40,746 bases of DNA, from the IMG/VR virus record IMGVR_UViG_3300038317_000316, positions 1 through 40,746 of that record; one strand, given 5' to 3'. Of this stretch, positions 1-40,746 are shown one piece after another. This DNA is from a virus. Its lineage: Duplodnaviria > Caudoviricetes. Within the stretch, counting starts at the first letter, position 1. The number at the start of each line of letters is the position of its first letter. A model generated the notes under the pieces. The model was not told where the DNA came from. It made no database searches and saw only the letters and a program-made list of their open reading frames with translations. The position numbers and the translations under genes were made by a program.

Positions 1-828
1 TTAACTGAGATACCAGTCTTGTACGCTTTCGCTTAAGACTGTGATCTGTCCCTTGATCTCAGATGCCTTGTCAAGATTTGCCGTGTCCTGTGCAGCGATT
101 TTACTGTCTTCCCGATCAGTAAGCTCGGAAAGTTCCTGCGTCAGGCGTTCGATTTCTTTCTCGTTTTCCTTGACCTGCTTCTTGGTCTTTGCAATAGTTA
201 CAATCTCACCGATATCCGTTGCTTGCTTCCGGACAGTCTTCCTTTTATTCTTGCCTTTGTAATATTCCTCATATTCCTTAACGAGGCTGTATACGCCAAA
301 GAGCTGTTCAAGTGCCATTATGGCAAGCTCTGCCGTTTCTTCTCCGTATTTGAGAGGCTTTCTTTCATAGGCATTATCCCTGCCGTAAATTCTGGAATAT
401 CTTCCTACAAGGCTTCGCCAGCTGTTTTCTGCTGTCTGGATCTGATATGCCTCCCGCAGATGTTTGCGAAAGTCATCCACTAGCATCGTTTCTCCCACCG
501 GCTGATAATTATCATCACATACGATGACAACACTGGCATTGAGCGTATCTCTCGTATACCACTCAATTTGATTTCCGAATTTGAAAGCAAACTTGATCGT
601 ATGGTTACCTACGAAACTCACAACATTATTGATTTCTGTATTCAGGTAATCATCTCCGCCGAAGCAGAAATCAAGCGCCAGCAAAAATGTTGACTTTCCT
701 ATGGAATTTTCAGCTTTTTTGTCTCCGAGAACAGTATTCAGTCCTTCGTGGAACTCAATACGGCCTCTGGGTACAAGCTTTCCATTTATCATTCTTGCGA
801 ACTTATCGCATTCAATCTCATATAACAT
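1..828 (-). pseudogene. ABC-three-component/Lamassu-type SMC-like ABC ATPase (DUF2326-like), N-terminal half; apparently frameshifted near position 33
   Basis: Walker A-like GLNTVLGDKKAENSIGKST followed by LDFCFGG, then a coiled coil. ATG at 828. Stops at about 275 aa with no Walker B half; adding one A restores the reading ...VLKRKRTRLVSQL, which runs off the window. Confidence 0.7.
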
Positions 829-1045
829 AGTGCAGCACTCCCTCTTCCTCATCGTATTCTATTTTGTGCAGTGCATAGAGGCAGTCCAGCACATCTACAT
901 ACTCATTTACACCGTCAAGGCTGCGGCTTACTTTCTGATAAAGTTCACGCACACCCAACGGCTGCTTTTTCAGTTCTTTTAATACCACCGGCAGTTTCGA
1001 CAGTATGCTTTCACTGTATGAAAACAGTTTGTTAGGAAATAACAT
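818..1045 (-). CDS. ABC-three-component system middle component (small protein, 75 aa)
   Basis: MLFPNKLFSYSESIL...LDCLYALHKIEY; overlaps both neighbouring genes; sits between the effector and the ATPase. Confidence 0.7.
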   Translation of the reverse strand: MLFPNKLFSYSESILSKLPVVLKELKKQPLGVRELYQKVSRSLDGVNEYVDVLDCLYALHKIEYDEEEGVLHYVI

Positions 1046-2171
1046 CAAACACCTCACACTTCTGTACAAAGTACGCAATTACAATTTCACAAGCGTGAGC
1101 GTCCTCGTTCGTTGCATCCTGCAGCCACTTTATCATTGCCTCATAAATCTGACGCTGAGAATAACCTTTTTCGTTCAAGTTTAGATAATTCAATCTCACC
1201 TGATGGCAGAATGGCTCAAAGCGCTGTTTTCCTTCACGGTTTAATTCCTGCAGAGTCTCGTGAACATCCGGATAATACAGATTTACCCAAACCTTTACCT
1301 GTGCAAGCAGATCCGGAGAGTCAGGGCTTATCTTCTGTTTCAACTGTGCCGGTTCATAATTCAGATCAACACCTTTTGGATAAGGTAGAGCTGGAATCTT
1401 TGTCAGCACTCGTCTGACGTCTTCGACAACCTTCTGCTGCGAAACGATTTCTTGCCTGTCAGCTATATCAATGAAAAGCTTCTTTATCTCCTGCATTCTG
1501 CGAATCTTGGCAGGATCCGCTGCAAGTTTATATTTCTTGGCGCAGTCCGGACACATAGCTATCAAGTTGTCCTCGCCGGTAACAGGCTTTGAGTAATCAA
1601 TCACTACTACTTCATAATTCGGAGCTATTTGTCCGCCTACTCGCATAAACAAAGAATTCGTACAACCGTCATTCGGGCAGATACTCTGTTCTTCTGCCAC
1701 AAGCGACACATCATACTTTTCTGTATAGTAATCTATATCATTGGCCTTGTCTGCTTTCTTCGCAGGCAAGGCTTTTTTTCTTTTTGGTGCAGCTGCATTT
1801 TCTATAATCGTCTGAAAACGCTCTGCCAGTACAATCTCATAGGTCGATTCATCTATATCCGGACATGTGGCTCGGAATGCATCGCATAACCCCATAACAG
1901 AATCATCGGCATCAAGCTTCAGATATTCCGCGAATGATCCTATATCAAGAGCTCCGGATATCTTCTTTGCTGTCGTCGTAATGTCATGCTCATGATAAAT
2001 GTAGCCCTTCAGTGTTCTTGGCTCCATGTCGTGAACATAAGCATCTGTTCCCTCTATACTGCCTTTGTAAATATGTGCAAACAAATCTCTTGTGAATTCA
2101 ATCAGGTCTTTATCACGCTGATAGAAGACAGAAAGCGCCTGCGCAAACTCGGAAAATTCTGTTTTATCCAA
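1032..2171 (-). CDS. ABC-three-component effector: N-terminal helical (possible HTH) domain + Zn-binding HNH-like domain + C-terminal ABC-3C domain
   Basis: TTG start at 2171 behind AAGGAGGTG. CPNDGC...NLIAMCPDC HNH-like pattern. C-terminus IVIAYFVQKCEVF is typical of ABC-3C effector CTDs. Confidence 0.72.
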   Translation of the reverse strand: MDKTEFSEFAQALSVFYQRDKDLIEFTRDLFAHIYKGSIEGTDAYVHDMEPRTLKGYIYHEHDITTTAKKISGALDIGSFAEYLKLDADDSVMGLCDAFRATCPDIDESTYEIVLAERFQTIIENAAAPKRKKALPAKKADKANDIDYYTEKYDVSLVAEEQSICPNDGCTNSLFMRVGGQIAPNYEVVVIDYSKPVTGEDNLIAMCPDCAKKYKLAADPAKIRRMQEIKKLFIDIADRQEIVSQQKVVEDVRRVLTKIPALPYPKGVDLNYEPAQLKQKISPDSPDLLAQVKVWVNLYYPDVHETLQELNREGKQRFEPFCHQVRLNYLNLNEKGYSQRQIYEAMIKWLQDATNEDAHACEIVIAYFVQKCEVFDVIS

Positions 2172-2429
2172 GACAAGCACCTCCTTCTTTTTTTGCAAGT
2201 GTGTACAACCATGTCCAGACGCGTCCAGTGTTGCTCGGGATTTTAGGGCTTTCTGAATATACTTAAAGCCATAAGGGAGCAACGGTTCACGAGTATAGAT
2301 AAACCAATATTTTATATTGTATCCGATTTTCGTCCGAATGTCAATTAAATTTATGCGAACGCAAATTTTTAGCAAGCGGATTAAAAGCAAAAGTTTAAAT
2401 GCATTTTTAGAAGCAAAAGTTCCCTTACA

Positions 2430-3160: not shown

Positions 3161-3199
3161 CTGCCATTGCCTAGTTTTTAGGATAATGGCAGTTTTTTT
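3161..3199 (+). terminator. Intrinsic terminator after the sigma-like gene
   Basis: CTGCCATT...AATGGCAG stem followed by a T7 run. Confidence 0.75.
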
Positions 3200-3209
3200 A
3201 TTTTTTCTC

Positions 3210-3251
3210 CGCTCAAATTGCCCTCTCATCTCCAGTGGAACTTGAAGGGCA
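3210..3251 (+). repeat. Dispersed element A, copy 1 (CGCTCAAAT-N7-TCATCTCCAGTGGAA + complementary arm)
   Basis: Identical boxes and spacing at 7715 and 34830. Confidence 0.85.
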
Positions 3252-5708: not shown

Positions 5709-7706
5709 GTGAAATCTATGCAAACACTCAGTATTGATCTGGAAACATTCAGCGACGTTGATCTTAATAAATGCGGTGTGTACAAGTACGCGGAGTCTCC
5801 GAACTTTGAGATCCTGCTCTTCGGCTATGCAGTCGATGGCGGCGAGGTACAAGTCATTGACCTTGCACAGAACGAACAAATTCCCGCAGATATTCTCGAT
5901 GCCCTGACGGACAACGCTATTACAAAGTGGGCATTCAATGCAAATTTTGAACGTGTATGTCTATCGAGATACCTACGTGATTTAAGTATAAGTCTTGACC
6001 CCTTCCATGATAGCCATCCGCTATCGCATGAATGTGTTCGTTTCCTGAACCCGGAAGGCTGGAAGTGTTCTATGGTCTGGGCGGCCACGATGGGACTTCC
6101 GCTTTCCTTAAAAGGCGTCGGCGCAGTACTAAAGCTTGAAGATCAGAAGATGGACGAGGGCAAGGCTCTCATCAAATATTTCTCCGTGCCATGTGCTCCT
6201 ACCAAGATAAACGGCGGTCGCACCAGAAACCTTCCTGAAGACGCTCCAGAAAAGTGGTCTGTCTTCAAAGCATATAACAAGAGAGACGTAGAAACCGAGA
6301 TAGGTATCAAGGAGAGGCTTGCCAAGTTCCCTGTACCAGACTCGGTCTGGGATGAATATCACATCGACCAGGAGATCAATGACAGAGGTGTCCGGCTGGA
6401 TATGGATTTGGTTAAAAAAGCAATCGAAATAGATACCCGCTCCCGAACGGAGCTTACTACAGCTATGAAGAATATTACGTCTCTTGATAACCCGAACTCT
6501 GTACAGCAAATGAAACAGTGGCTCTCCGACAATGGCCTCGAAACCGACAGTCTCGGCAAAAAGGTCGTGGCCGAACTCATCAAGACCGCTCCGCCAGAAT
6601 TGCAAACCGTTCTGGAACTAAGGCAGCAGCTTGCTAAGTCCTCTGTCCGAAAATATCAGACGATGGAACGTGCAGTATGTAATGACGGCAGAGCTCGTGG
6701 CATGTTCGCTTTTTATGGAGCCAACCGCACCGGGCGCTGGGCAGGAAGACTGATTCAATTGCAAAACCTCCCGCAGAATCATCTGGAAGATCTCTCCGAT
6801 GCACGTTCTCTTGTGAAATCCGGTGACTTTGACGCAGTCAAGATGCTCTATGAAGATGTACCTGACACACTTTCGCAGTTAATTCGAACTGCATTTATAC
6901 CAAAATCAGGTACAAGATTTTATGTTTCTGACTTCAGTGCTATTGAAGCCAGGGTGATTGCCTGGTATGCAGGAGAAACATGGAGACAGAAAGTATTCGA
7001 AAACGGCGGCGATATCTATTGCGCCAGTGCTTCACAGATGTTTCATGTTCCAGTCGTAAAGCATGGCATCAATGGTCACCTGCGTCAAAAAGGAAAGATT
7101 GCAGAACTCGCTCTCGGCTACGGCGGCTCTGTCGGTGCTCTCAAGGCAATGGGTGCTCTTGAAATGGGACTTTCTGAAGATGAGCTTCCTCCACTAGTTG
7201 ATGCTTGGAGACAGACAAATCCCAATATTGTGAAATTCTGGTGGAACGTCGATCACGCGGTCATGGAAGCAGTCAAACACAAGCATGCTACCTCCAGCTA
7301 CAGACTGACCTTTTCCTGCAGATCCGGAATGCTCTTCATTACACTTCCTTCTGGTAGAAATCTCGCATATGTAAAGCCCAAGATTGGCACAAACAGATTC
7401 GGTGGTGAATGTATCACTTACGAAGGCATCGGCAGCACGAAAAAATGGGAACGACTCGACTCATACGGCCCGAAATTTGTCGAAAATATTGTACAGGCAA
7501 CTTCCCGGGATATTCTTTGCTACGCCATGAAAACACTTCGCTGCTGCTCCATCGTTATGCACATTCATGATGAACTGGTCATCGAAGGCGATCCAAACAT
7601 GTCACTTGATGCTCTGTGTGAACAAATGGGCAGAACTCCGCCTTGGGCTCCCGGTCTTAAACTTCGTGCTGATGGGTATACCTGCGATTTCTATCAAAAA
7701 GATTAA
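5709..7706 (+). CDS. Phage family A DNA polymerase with 3'-5' exonuclease
   Basis: ExoI DLET; motif A DFSAIEAR; motif B RQKGKIAELALGYG; motif C HIHDE. Start is GTG 5709 or ATG 5718. Confidence 0.93.
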   Translation: MKSMQTLSIDLETFSDVDLNKCGVYKYAESPNFEILLFGYAVDGGEVQVIDLAQNEQIPADILDALTDNAITKWAFNANFERVCLSRYLRDLSISLDPFHDSHPLSHECVRFLNPEGWKCSMVWAATMGLPLSLKGVGAVLKLEDQKMDEGKALIKYFSVPCAPTKINGGRTRNLPEDAPEKWSVFKAYNKRDVETEIGIKERLAKFPVPDSVWDEYHIDQEINDRGVRLDMDLVKKAIEIDTRSRTELTTAMKNITSLDNPNSVQQMKQWLSDNGLETDSLGKKVVAELIKTAPPELQTVLELRQQLAKSSVRKYQTMERAVCNDGRARGMFAFYGANRTGRWAGRLIQLQNLPQNHLEDLSDARSLVKSGDFDAVKMLYEDVPDTLSQLIRTAFIPKSGTRFYVSDFSAIEARVIAWYAGETWRQKVFENGGDIYCASASQMFHVPVVKHGINGHLRQKGKIAELALGYGGSVGALKAMGALEMGLSEDELPPLVDAWRQTNPNIVKFWWNVDHAVMEAVKHKHATSSYRLTFSCRSGMLFITLPSGRNLAYVKPKIGTNRFGGECITYEGIGSTKKWERLDSYGPKFVENIVQATSRDILCYAMKTLRCCSIVMHIHDELVIEGDPNMSLDALCEQMGRTPPWAPGLKLRADGYTCDFYQKD

Positions 7707-7714
7707 ATATTCTC

Positions 7715-7764
7715 CGCTCAAATCAGGCGTTCATCTCCAGTGGAAATTAGAGGTGGACGCCTGA
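7715..7764 (+). repeat. Dispersed element A, copy 2
   Basis: CGCTCAAAT-CAGGCGT-TCATCTCCAGTGGAA-ATTAGAGGTGGACGCCTGA. Confidence 0.85.
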
Positions 7765-15679: not shown

Positions 15680-15737
15680 TACACAAATTCAGGCCAGCTA
15701 ATTCAGCGATTTTCTATCACGGAAATACCGTAGTATT

Positions 15738-15776
15738 GCTTGCTATATAAGGCTTTCAGAGTGATATATGTACATA
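15738..15776 (+). promoter_or_regulatory. Dispersed element B (promoter-like), copy 1
   Basis: GCTTGCTA-N10-TCAGAGTGATATATGTACATA; near-identical at 16973, diverged at 35080. Confidence 0.75.
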
Positions 15777-15828
15777 CCGAAAGGCACAAAAGGAAGTCTT
15801 CGGAAAACAAAAAACGGAGGTACACACC

Positions 15829-16923: not shown

Positions 16924-16972
16924 ACTACACAATTTACCCGGTCAAAAACTATTACATATATGTCTCAATATA

Positions 16973-17011
16973 GCTTGCTATTACAAGGCTTCAGAGTGAT
17001 ATATGTACATA
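16973..17011 (+). promoter_or_regulatory. Dispersed element B, copy 2
   Basis: GCTTGCTA-N10-TCAGAGTGATATATGTACATA. Confidence 0.75.
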
Positions 17012-17043
17012 ACAAAAAAGGAAAACCTAAGGAGGAAAAACAC

Positions 17044-33303: not shown

Positions 33304-33723
33304 ATGAAAGAATTCTGGAATTCGATTCAATTTATATTTGCTGCTATCGGAGGCTGGCTTGGCTGGTTTCTCGGAGGATGCGACGGTCTGATGATTGCAC
33401 TTATTATCTTTGTCGTTGCGGACTACATCACGGGAGTAATGTGCGCAGTTGCCGACAAAAAATTATCATCGGCAGTCGGTTTTAAGGGTATCCGCCGAAA
33501 AGTGCTGATTTTCATTCTGGTCGGCATCGCAAACGCACTCGATATCTATGTACTTGATCATGCAGGCGTACTTAGGACGGCGATCATTTTCTTTTACATC
33601 TCAAATGAAGGTTTATCACTCATAGAAAATAGTTCCCACTTAGGTCTTCCCATACCGGAAAAACTAAAGAATGTCCTGGCGCAGCTGCATGACCGTGAAG
33701 AAAAAGAAAGTGAGGATAAGTAA
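33304..33723 (+). CDS. Holin (toxin secretion/phage lysis family)
   Basis: DYITG, LSS.VGFKGI, FYISNEG.S..EN, G.P.PEKL; transmembrane segments. Confidence 0.92.
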   Translation: MKEFWNSIQFIFAAIGGWLGWFLGGCDGLMIALIIFVVADYITGVMCAVADKKLSSAVGFKGIRRKVLIFILVGIANALDIYVLDHAGVLRTAIIFFYISNEGLSLIENSSHLGLPIPEKLKNVLAQLHDREEKESEDK

Positions 33724-33724
33724 C

Positions 33725-34761
33725 ATGACAAGAATCAAAGGAATCGACGTTTCCCGCTGGCAGGGAAATATTGACTGGGCAAGAGTAAAATCGGCAGGCA
33801 TCGGGTTTGCCATCATAAAAACCGGCGGATCTGACGACGGCTTCTATACTGACAGCAAGTGGGCAAAAAACTATGCAGGTGCCAAAGCTGCTTGTATCCC
33901 TATCGGCGCTTATTACTTTGTCGGGAAGAATTGCGTAACAGCCGCTGCAGGAAAAGCAGATGCAGAGCGCTTCCTGAAAATCCTCAAAGGCAAGCAGCTG
34001 GAGTACCCGGTCTACATGGACAATGAGGCTCAGCCTGCTTCTGCTAAAGCCGGTATCACCGAGGCTACCATTGCTTTCTGCGAGACGATGGAAAATGCTG
34101 GATACTTTGTCGGCATCTATGGTTCCACTTACTCCGGTTTTCATGACCGAATGGATGATTCCAAGCTGAAAGCATATACCCACTGGGTAGCACAGTATGC
34201 CAGCAAATGCACCTACTCCGGCGAGTACGGAATTTGGCAGTATTCTTCCAAAGGCTCTGTTGATGGTATTTCCGGAAATGTAGATATGGATTACGCCTAT
34301 ATCGATTATCCGGCCATCATCAAAGCTGGTGGATTCAATGGTTACAAGAAAACAGATGAACCTAGCGAAGATTTTTATACATTCAAGAGTAGGAATAGAA
34401 CTTTTGTTACAAGAAAACAGATGAACCTAGCGAAGGTACTGCTACGCCTGTTGCCCCGAAAAAATCTGTGACAGAGCTTGCAAAGGATGTCATAGAAGGA
34501 AAATGGGGAAATGGCACGGCTCGTAGGAATGCTCTCACCACTGCCGGATATGACTACTCCGCGGTTCAGTCAAAGGTCAACGAACTACTTTCAACACCCA
34601 CTACCGAGGCCGCTGTCTGGTACACGGTAAAACGAGGTGATACGCTCTCTGCTATTGCCTGCAAATATGGCACCAGCGTTTCGGCAATTCAAAAGCTGAA
34701 CCCAACGCTCATCAAGAATGTTAATCTCATTATCACCGGATGGAAGATCCGCGTGAAATAA
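33725..34761 (+). pseudogene. Endolysin (GH25 muramidase - Cpl-7-like - LysM) split by a 65-bp insertion
   Basis: GIDVSRWQG, D.E and WQYSS GH25 motifs in 33725-34471; [10 protein letters not shown] and Lys[14 protein letters not shown] in 34468-34761. Removing 34371-34435 fuses them in frame. Confidence 0.88.
34341..34435 (+). repeat. Exact 30-bp direct repeat flanking a 35-bp insert (repeat-spacer-repeat geometry)
   Basis: GTTACAAGAAAACAGATGAACCTAGCGAAG at 34341-34370 and 34406-34435. Confidence 0.95.
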
Positions 34762-34781: not shown

Positions 34782-34820
34782 GCCTGCAAGTGTTCTTCGG
34801 AATGCCTGCAGGCTTTTTTT
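34782..34820 (+). terminator. Intrinsic terminator after the lysin
   Basis: GCCTGCAAGTGTTC-TTCG-GAATGCCTGCAGGC followed by a T7 run. Confidence 0.85.
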
Positions 34821-34829
34821 ATTTTCTTT

Positions 34830-34873
34830 CGCTCAAATCTACTCCTCATCTCCAGTGGAACTTGGAGGTGGAT
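34830..34873 (+). repeat. Dispersed element A, copy 3
   Basis: CGCTCAAAT-CTACTCC-TCATCTCCAGTGGAA-CTTGGAGGTGGAT; the arm contains the SD of the next gene. Confidence 0.85.
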
Positions 34874-35085: not shown

Positions 35086-35118
35086 TGTGTAGGCGTTTTA
35101 GAGTGATGTATAGACATG
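35080..35118 (+). promoter_or_regulatory. Dispersed element B, copy 3 (diverged), upstream of the recombinases
   Basis: GCTTGATG-N10-TTAGAGTGATGTATAGACATG. Confidence 0.6.
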
Positions 35119-39591: not shown

Positions 39592-40746
39592 TTACTCATC
39601 TATGCTTAATAATCGTTGCCTCCAATCCCCATAAAGCTTAGCAACTTTAGCTACTTTTAAAGCTGAATATATTAGTCCTCCTCCATTGGCTGTTGTATCT
39701 TCAGCAATCTGATATTTGTATTCATCTATAATCTGGCTATCTGCATAGTCGTCAAAATGCTCACAAAGATATACATCAAAATCCGTCTTTTCTTTTTTTC
39801 CCTTGAAAATCAAGAATTGGTTGTAATTTGGTTCCCGACTGGATATGTCCATACTTCCATGCGTAAAGATAGCCAGCATTTTTCCTTCAATTGTGTCCAT
39901 TTGATAATACGAGTAACAAGAATCGGGTTTTCCATTTATACAGCTGTTCGTTGCTTTCGGCAGGTATTTTCTGAATTCATCAAACGCCCATATCTCTGTC
40001 TCATATATTATTGTGTTATGGTACATGATATTTAGTTTAGCTAAATGCATAACAGGGTGTGTATAAAAAGCCGCTGCCGGCCACCAGCCTGGCTCAAAAT
40101 CTCCGATTCTCTGCATTCGGAATTCAGGGTGTTCTTTATGATATGCATAATCCTTGTTTCCCCAATCAAAAACCCATTTATTTGATTCATCAAGAAGTAC
40201 ATTAAGCCTCTTAAGAATCGGCTGATTAAGCCCAAAATGCTTCCCCCATAAATATTCAAGACACCAGTAAGGAGTGATGTCACCTTGTCCAGCCTTTCGA
40301 TCATTTAACCTGACATATATTTTCCCCGCTTCAACAACTTTAGCTTTAAGAGGATCATCGACTTTATTATCTTTATACTTCTCTGTCAAATAATATGGAG
40401 TATGCATCGTATTGCGAACAATTATGACATCTATTTCATGTTCCTCAAGATAGATCGTTTGCAAATCCACCTCAGGAGAATATGCTGCATACTTCTTGTT
40501 AGAAATAATCTGTGATAGATTTCTAAGTGGTAGACGATTTGGATCAGTTTCAACACCCTTAATGCTCCATGTCGAATCCTCAACCCCGAGGATGATATAT
40601 GCATCCATATCCTCAAGATTGTTTGCCATACAAAGGACATCAAGGAGCAACTCACCTTTATCGTTATACCACTCTTTCTTAAAATCCCAATAGCCGCCTT
40701 CACGTTTTAACAAAAGCAAATCTTTAACGGTATCTTGTAAATTCAT
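39592..40746 (-). CDS. AlbA_2/Schlafen-like domain protein with uncharacterised C-terminal domain
   Basis: REGGYWDFKKEW, D..CMANN, YIILGVED, PYYL, IYVR. Confidence 0.8.
   Translation of the reverse strand: MNLQDTVKDLLLLKREGGYWDFKKEWYNDKGELLLDVLCMANNLEDMDAYIILGVEDSTWSIKGVETDPNRLPLRNLSQIISNKKYAAYSPEVDLQTIYLEEHEIDVIIVRNTMHTPYYLTEKYKDNKVDDPLKAKVVEAGKIYVRLNDRKAGQGDITPYWCLEYLWGKHFGLNQPILKRLNVLLDESNKWVFDWGNKDYAYHKEHPEFRMQRIGDFEPGWWPAAAFYTHPVMHLAKLNIMYHNTIIYETEIWAFDEFRKYLPKATNSCINGKPDSCYSYYQMDTIEGKMLAIFTHGSMDISSREPNYNQFLIFKGKKEKTDFDVYLCEHFDDYADSQIIDEYKYQIAEDTTANGGGLIYSALKVAKVAKLYGDWRQRLLSIDE

Follow-up and report, generated by a model that had tools for sequence, protein, structure and literature searches.

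Off-target CRISPR integration is a known side effect, seldom documented in nature. Repeat-spacer-repeat units are known from viruses as well, and such virus-borne mini-arrays have host-type repeats, usually together with a leader. In E. coli, off-target spacer integration by the type I-E system leads to so-called neo-CRISPR loci (Nivala, Shipman and Church 2018, as covered by the accessible parts of PMC7054753 and bioRxiv 10.1101/148544). The natural frequency of such events is called unclear in the available text, and Nivala found circumstantial evidence for them in two other species (bioRxiv 10.1101/148544). Purified Cas1-Cas2 of Pyrococcus furiosus integrated off-target at sites that have G or C residues with a spacing of 30 bp and that agree with the repeat at certain positions (PMC6698737, accessible sections). 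In the literature searched, which comprised few subscription journals and the main texts of the papers, we found no natural off-target integration in a phage gene; the supplements of Nivala 2018 may list candidates.

The lysin gene of the prophage analysed here contains a 35-bp insert between two copies of a 30-bp sequence. Like the E. coli neo-CRISPR loci, it combines a spacer-sized insert with a repeat-sized duplication outside arrays. The latter were, however, obtained in the laboratory with overproduced Cas1-Cas2 and supplied oligonucleotides, as far as described in the parts of the two reports at hand (PMC7054753, bioRxiv 10.1101/148544), whereas the lysin scar is a natural prophage allele of 30/35 geometry with a putative enzyme. 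With the P. furiosus sites it shares the 30-bp spacing, the G/C borders and 9 of 15 positions, but that case, according to the available sections, concerns an archaeal enzyme acting in vitro on a plasmid target, and its leader-side bases are mostly unmatched at the lysin (PMC6698737). The repeat-spacer-repeat order within a viral genome is also that of the virus-borne mini-CRISPR arrays (PMC6858448, PMC7099407, both in the parts accessible). Unlike in these arrays, the "repeat" in the lysin gene is a coding linker, no leader or promoter signal is seen and the gene is broken. New in the present case are the nature of the target, a lysis gene of a prophage, and the apparent occurrence of both alleles in nature.

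The interrupted lysin gene

The window, i.e. the whole stretch of DNA that was analysed, is a virus record of 40,746 bases that consists of the prophage alone. The features of its lysis region are as follows:

33304..33723, + strand: holin (profile match to Phage_holin_4_1), 139 aa, upstream of the lysin
33725..34471, + strand: upstream half of the lysin, 248 aa, with complete GH25 domain; 215 native residues and a frameshifted tail of 33 residues
34341..34370, + strand: 30-bp duplicated target, copy 1; native DNA of the linker that joins GH25 to CW_7
34370..34471, + strand: frameshifted tail of the upstream product, 33 residues with 9 Lys/Arg and 1 acidic residue; its stop overlaps the next GTG
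34371..34405, no strand assigned: 35-bp insert, spacer-sized, 8 G+C; searches found no source
34406..34435, + strand: 30-bp duplicated target, copy 2, identical in the repeat comparison
34468..34761, + strand: severed cell-wall-binding half with CW_7 and LysM, 97 aa; its GTG start overlaps the upstream stop

The two copies are 100% identical over exactly 30 bp and the bases flanking them differ, confirming the exact duplication claimed in an earlier note on this DNA. In its composition the insert (22.9% G+C, window 45.4%) is foreign to the prophage. Only 0.44% of the window 35-mers are equally AT-rich, whereas 9.6% of 260 real I-B spacers are. The earlier note had given 8 G+C for the 35-mer and had not found it elsewhere in the window by eye, which agrees with a best ungapped match of 23/35 and a longest common word of 10 bases in the rest of the window. 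No RNA structure was detected in the target, the insert or the whole unit (fold z of the insert 0.05 and -0.27).

After removal of the 65 extra bases the gene forms, as had been claimed, a single frame, comprising 323 codons and matching the 322-323 aa of the full-length relatives in the nearest cluster. Lysins with 90% identity to that of the window are encoded in the loci L001 (IMG/VR) and L081 ("uncultured eubacterium 1-6"). In both, the target is present as a single copy with 26 of 30 identical positions, followed by the same bases as found 3' of copy 2 in the window. The 30-mer is therefore native linker sequence and the insert the newcomer, as the earlier note had proposed, and L001 and L081, with their uninterrupted target, provide an outgroup. 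Outside the lysin, the 30-mer was not found as a spacer or repeat in viral contigs (0 matches), nor was its 22-base core in metagenomes (0 matches).

Short-range repeats (exact, at least 20 bp, within 300 bp) were searched in 1,215,689 bases comprising the window and the loci L001-L160 and L166-L169. Three of the 47 exact repeats had a CRISPR-like geometry, the lysin scar being one of them; the other two, in L119 and L128, belong to periodic arrays of three and seven copies. A second scar of the 30/35 type was found neither in the window nor in the related loci covered by this 1.2-Mb scan. The array in L128 (6771-7250) is a 69-base periodic repeat in seven copies, located near a GH25 gene.

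The 65-base insertion shifts the reading frame and thereby parts the GH25 catalytic domain from CW_7-LysM. The term "knocked out", used in the earlier note for this lysin, goes beyond the sequence: the GH25 domain is whole (PF01183, profile 1-180 of 180) and only CW_7-LysM is cut off. Acidic motifs, to which we presume a catalytic role, are present at residues 6-10, 98-101 and 186-189. No obvious ribosome-binding site was seen for the 97-aa frame encoding CW_7-LysM. Among the best relatives listed, 102 of 119 comprise at least 290 aa, mostly with GH25, CW_7 and LysM in one chain. An independent observation concerns a sister lysin (P0122 and P0127, on one Logan contig of 4,206 bases), which is apparently broken by another frameshift near codon 62; this is a second possible lesion in the lysin family, or it may be an assembly error.

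Occurrence of both alleles and setting of the prophage

Eight of 24 listed public runs were compared (X1-X8; runs with a small share were excluded), the material being Logan contigs, not reads. In X1, X2, X3, X5 and X7 the complete unit lies within one contig with 0 substitutions, X7 showing one gap downstream. The contigs of X4 break exactly at 34370 and 34406, and a separate 95-base contig contains the unit at a depth of 16 compared to 21-22 in the flanks; to the left and right of the insert this contig extends by 30 bases, one below the bridging rule, and some records were filtered out. The break indicates that both alleles are probably present in X4. In X6 the contig skips exactly 65 bp and is otherwise identical, corresponding to the empty form, with a joint that is less safe as its short side has just 26 bases and the match was made at 85% likeness. 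In X8, with a depth of 4-5, the insert falls into a gap of the contigs, and the run is uninformative. Apparently, the insert-bearing and the empty allele both occur in nature. The ratio of six runs with the insert to one or two without it cannot be taken as a sign of selection, since an insert-bearing query had retrieved the runs and they may belong to one host clone.

Four studies from the years 2014 to 2025 (P1, P2, P3 and P5) contain the insert. The window itself may derive from X1-X4, which are flagged accordingly; when these are set aside, X5 (P1) and X7 (P5) remain. The truncated lysin protein is recorded from Logan, ENA and JGI/IMG assemblies. Logan unitigs are constructed from k+1-mer records, once-seen words are dropped and all 31-mers are distinct, according to the accessible part of bioRxiv 10.1101/2024.07.30.605881. 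Since only k-mers seen at least twice are kept, the junction words should exist in the reads. The distinct 31-mers and the five unbroken runs further suggest that the insert is there neither repeated in multiple copies nor copied from host DNA that was assembled as well.

The window encodes DNA polymerase A, D5 primase, terminase, portal, Clp protease, capsid and tape measure, and, according to profile matches, holin, lysin and three serine recombinases. It is a siphovirus-type prophage of Clostridia, the morphotype label being one that we infer. The best named relative of the flanking MerR gene is found in Caproicibacterium argilliputei (92% identity). Partners of prophage proteins in 90% clusters come from Acidaminococcus, Faecalicatena, Eubacterium, Caproicibacter, Butyricicoccus and Streptococcus suis, indicating that the prophage family crosses hosts and that the scar may stem from an earlier host. 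DNA of the lysin region matched in 4 of 151 genomes from the family of G001, the genome with the closest lysin (best 88%). The flanking MerR gene matched in 35 of 401 genomes of the G155 family (best 65%) and in none of the viral contigs. A genome carrying the window prophage together with its own CRISPR system was found in neither of these two families (151 and 401 genomes), and the literature search gave no paper on CRISPR systems of Caproicibacterium.

Besides two CRISPR systems, the 3.7-Mb genome G001 contains many related prophages (on contigs C5, C8, C22, C29, C38, C40, C45 and C59); the first 20 kb of the window gave 68 matches in it. Proteins of the window are also found on contigs that differ in source and are 67,071 and 67,138 bases long, and the longest record of X1 has 67,156 bases. 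These similar lengths point either to repeated assembly of a single sample or to a unit of about 67 kb.

Of 41 prophage frames compared, 31 have relatives in the loci, and their lengths are near those of the relatives except for the two lysin halves. The few other differences in frame length presumably result from start choice. For Clp, capsid, tape measure and major tail protein the cluster members have the same or nearly the same length. The lysin split is therefore the only lesion seen in the phage genes, and general decay of the prophage was rejected on this comparison. Such a lone lesion may mark the beginning of domestication, or it may be a nearly neutral change carried along by a clonal lineage.

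Both ends of the window carry further genes of defence-like character. At 1-2390 (- strand) a CTD11 (ABC-three-component) protein with weak matches to LmuA and PDC-M68A is encoded, followed by an AAA ATPase with weak LmuB matches, which may be truncated (283 aa, profiles about 570-610 positions). At 39592-40746 (- strand) a Schlafen/AlbA_2 protein matching the candidate defence family PDC-S50 (E 1e-90) is located beside the MerR regulator. Two intergenic motifs were observed in addition. A 55-base motif, possibly a regulatory or recombination site, occurs three times before gene starts (3194-3248, 7699-7753, 34814-34868; 71-80% alike); its third copy lies just after the lysin, and related stretches exist in sister prophages. 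The other one (15714-15782 and 16949-17017, 69 bases with 74% likeness) has the appearance of a promoter or operator and is resembled by a stretch near 35095-35115, before the first recombinase gene.

CRISPR geometry and origin of the unit

A search for type I-B Cas1 (TIGR03641) was positive in 46 of 300 Clostridia genomes and in 3 of 301 genomes of a family-level draw around an Acutalibacteraceae genome. We take Acutalibacteraceae to be the likely family of Caproicibacterium, the best-named host hint. Arrays were present in 27 of 33 I-B loci; their repeats measure 30 bp in 22 cases and 29 bp in 5. Those with 30-bp repeats contain 265 spacers of 34-39 bases (56 spacers with 35, 111 with 36). 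A combination of 30 and 35 bp is therefore a normal I-B unit, and at class level the agreement with type I-B sizes in Clostridia put forward in the earlier note holds. In G001 and G005 the arrays beside cas1 have the geometries 33/33-36 and 36/29-30, which are presumably I-C-like and type II-like and do not fit 30/35; the arrays beside the two cas1 genes of G001 are of 33/33-35 and 36/29-30, and neither has a 30-bp repeat.

The target has G at both borders, where the Pyrococcus off-target sites have G or C in the accessible description (PMC6698737). It scores 9 of the 15 positions enriched there, a value reached by 799 of 81,304 window 30-mers, for a motif that is archaeal; on these positions the true target boundary is the best of 13 registers. 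On a matrix of 21 Clostridia I-B repeats the target ranks within the top 3.5% and is the best of 11 registers on the + strand. Its best identity to one of these repeats is 14/30, and 8.3% of composition shuffles score as well; in gapped alignment this applies for 77.5% of the shuffles. The six bases upstream of the target show no likeness to a leader, 45% of the window 6-mers scoring equally. As judged from these comparisons, the target may be considered weakly repeat-like. For the loose resemblance to CRISPR repeat ends noted earlier, the rank (top 1.0% and 3.5%) and the best register at the true boundary stand beside an identity of 14/30 at best and a shuffle P of about 0.08. The unit lies within a coding region and no leader or promoter signal was found upstream of it. 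A functional CRISPR mini-array was rejected, as the repeat reaches at most 14/30 with the 21 I-B repeats, belongs to no Rfam repeat family and shows no fold, and leader and promoter are lacking. The unit is a mutational scar and not a working CRISPR array.

A source of the insert was not found in the collections searched. The whole 35-mer had 0 matches in viral contigs and, at up to 3 mismatches, in 0 of 301 Clostridia genomes. Its 24-base core had 0 exact matches in 185,579 species genomes and 0 in the metagenome collection, sets that may lack the nearest genomes. Blastn of the 35-mer gave 11 phage and 9 plasmid records, all with E of 1 or worse. Two 17-mers of the insert had 0 and 2 matches in viral contigs, extending to just 21 and 25 of 35 bases. 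As no protospacer was found, no PAM could be read. To our knowledge, most spacers have no known match.

The exact duplication, the native target and the class-level I-B sizes make it probable that the insert and the duplication result from off-target spacer integration by a type I-B-like Cas1-Cas2 of the host. The spacer acquisition suggested in the earlier note is consistent with a real scar, a native target and these sizes; its weak sides are the poor likeness of the target to a repeat, the rarity of type I-B Cas1 in the likely host family (3 of 301 genomes) and the arrays of G001, which lack 30-bp repeats. A Cas1-Cas2 complex loaded with a processed 35-bp prespacer would have missed its CRISPR array, and the two 3' ends of the prespacer would have attacked opposite strands 30 bp apart at the weakly repeat-like site. 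Gap filling and repair would then have duplicated the 30-bp target. For the attack and the duplication we rely on the known chemistry of Cas1-Cas2. The event may have happened once, in the lysogen or, the prophage family having a broad range of hosts, in a previous one of these, with clonal inheritance afterwards. Recombination or slippage between the two 30-bp copies would remove the insert again. The enzyme, a foreign origin of the insert, the effect on lysis and reversion are what we infer from the scar. Taken alone, this one scar, for which the searches gave neither host nor source, proves little.

Alternatively, the unit might be the result of a replication or repair accident, in which the polymerase left its template after the 30-mer, took up 35 unrelated bases and re-primed 30 bases back, both sizes being due to chance. 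No special enzyme is needed for this, the target's likeness to a repeat is weak and that of the upstream bases to a leader absent, and the site had been picked for its sizes. Such an accident appears rather unlikely in view of the lack of a template in the window (best 23/35) and of microhomology at the junctions, where the bases flanking the two copies differ. Furthermore, both lengths fall on I-B values, and no other duplication with an insert was seen outside periodic repeats in the 1.2 Mb (46 repeats inspected by eye, two checked). A larger mobile element leaving 35 bp behind, either after a long target duplication of the IS1549/IS1634 type or after recombination at a 30-bp core, is very unlikely. 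Target duplications of 8-514 bp are reported for IS1549 and IS1634 in the accessible part of PMC2266710, an exception to the earlier statement that those of IS elements are far shorter, and the prophage itself encodes serine recombinases. Nothing in the unit resembles such an element, however: the 35 bp between the copies contain neither a transposase gene nor recurring element ends, terminal inverted repeats (by eye) and a stable fold are lacking, the 24-base core, expected to recur if it were an IS end, has no exact match in the genome and metagenome collections, and a longer allele was not seen in the eight runs compared.

The roles of the two sequences could also be reversed, the 35-mer being a host CRISPR repeat and the 30-mer an anti-phage spacer, with a repeat-spacer circle recombined into the protospacer. 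The sum of 65 bp is indeed a unit length in 36/29-30 arrays (3 of 21 units in L171), and the insert loosely resembles I-B repeats (17/30). This likeness is matched by 8% (matrix) and 17% (gapped) of the shuffles, no Rfam CRISPR repeat family was hit at E up to 10, and neither the exact core in species genomes and metagenomes nor the 35-mer in the 301 Clostridia genomes recurred. A multi-copy repeat would, moreover, break Logan contigs, and five runs pass unbroken. This reading, which the earlier note had named as a refuting case, is highly improbable and did not hold. Neither did the other such case, an assembly artefact. The repeat length coincides with k-1 for assemblers using k=31, contigs were the only material and X1-X4 are flagged, but the same 35 bases are found in runs of four studies, including the unflagged X5 and X7, the truncated protein comes from three kinds of assemblies and the junction words should have been seen at least twice in reads. 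We regard an artefact as scarcely credible.

Lysis and fate of the prophage

The activity of the split lysin may be judged from related enzymes. Cpl-7 (PMC3466307) and CTP1L (PMC5812242) resemble the window lysin in having GH25 followed by a cell-wall-binding module, CW_7 being common to Cpl-7 and the window lysin. In both enzymes the binding module is required for activity according to the parts of the reports available: Cpl-7 depends on its CW_7 repeats (PMC3466307), and the isolated GH25 domain of CTP1L did not lyse cells when applied externally, some other catalytic domains being active without a partner (PMC5812242). In the window lysin, by contrast, the binding module is encoded in a separate frame and the catalytic half ends in a new tail of basic character. 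CTP1L produces a free binding domain besides the full-length protein, as described in the accessible text (PMC5812242), whereas the window allele has no full-length frame.

The need for the binding module in Cpl-7 and CTP1L makes a reduced activity of the split lysin likely. By analogy, lysis is likely to be weakened rather than abolished. A basic tail can aid binding to the wall. The lysin acts from within during lysis, which tempers the analogy to external lysis.

It is conceivable that the host's CRISPR integrase disarmed the prophage by placing a spacer in its lysis gene, that the allele spread because it spared the lysogen and kept the defence cargo, and that the 30-bp repeat, by permitting reversion, serves as a reversible lysis switch of which both states exist in natural populations; we consider this full scenario quite unlikely. 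If the disarming is true, CRISPR adaptation without the interference step would be a route to prophage domestication. The lysin scar is a clean natural candidate for which an outgroup and what appears to be an empty allele are available and whose phenotype can be measured; with it, CRISPR adaptation becomes testable as an insertional mutagen, and selection on such scars could be tested as well.
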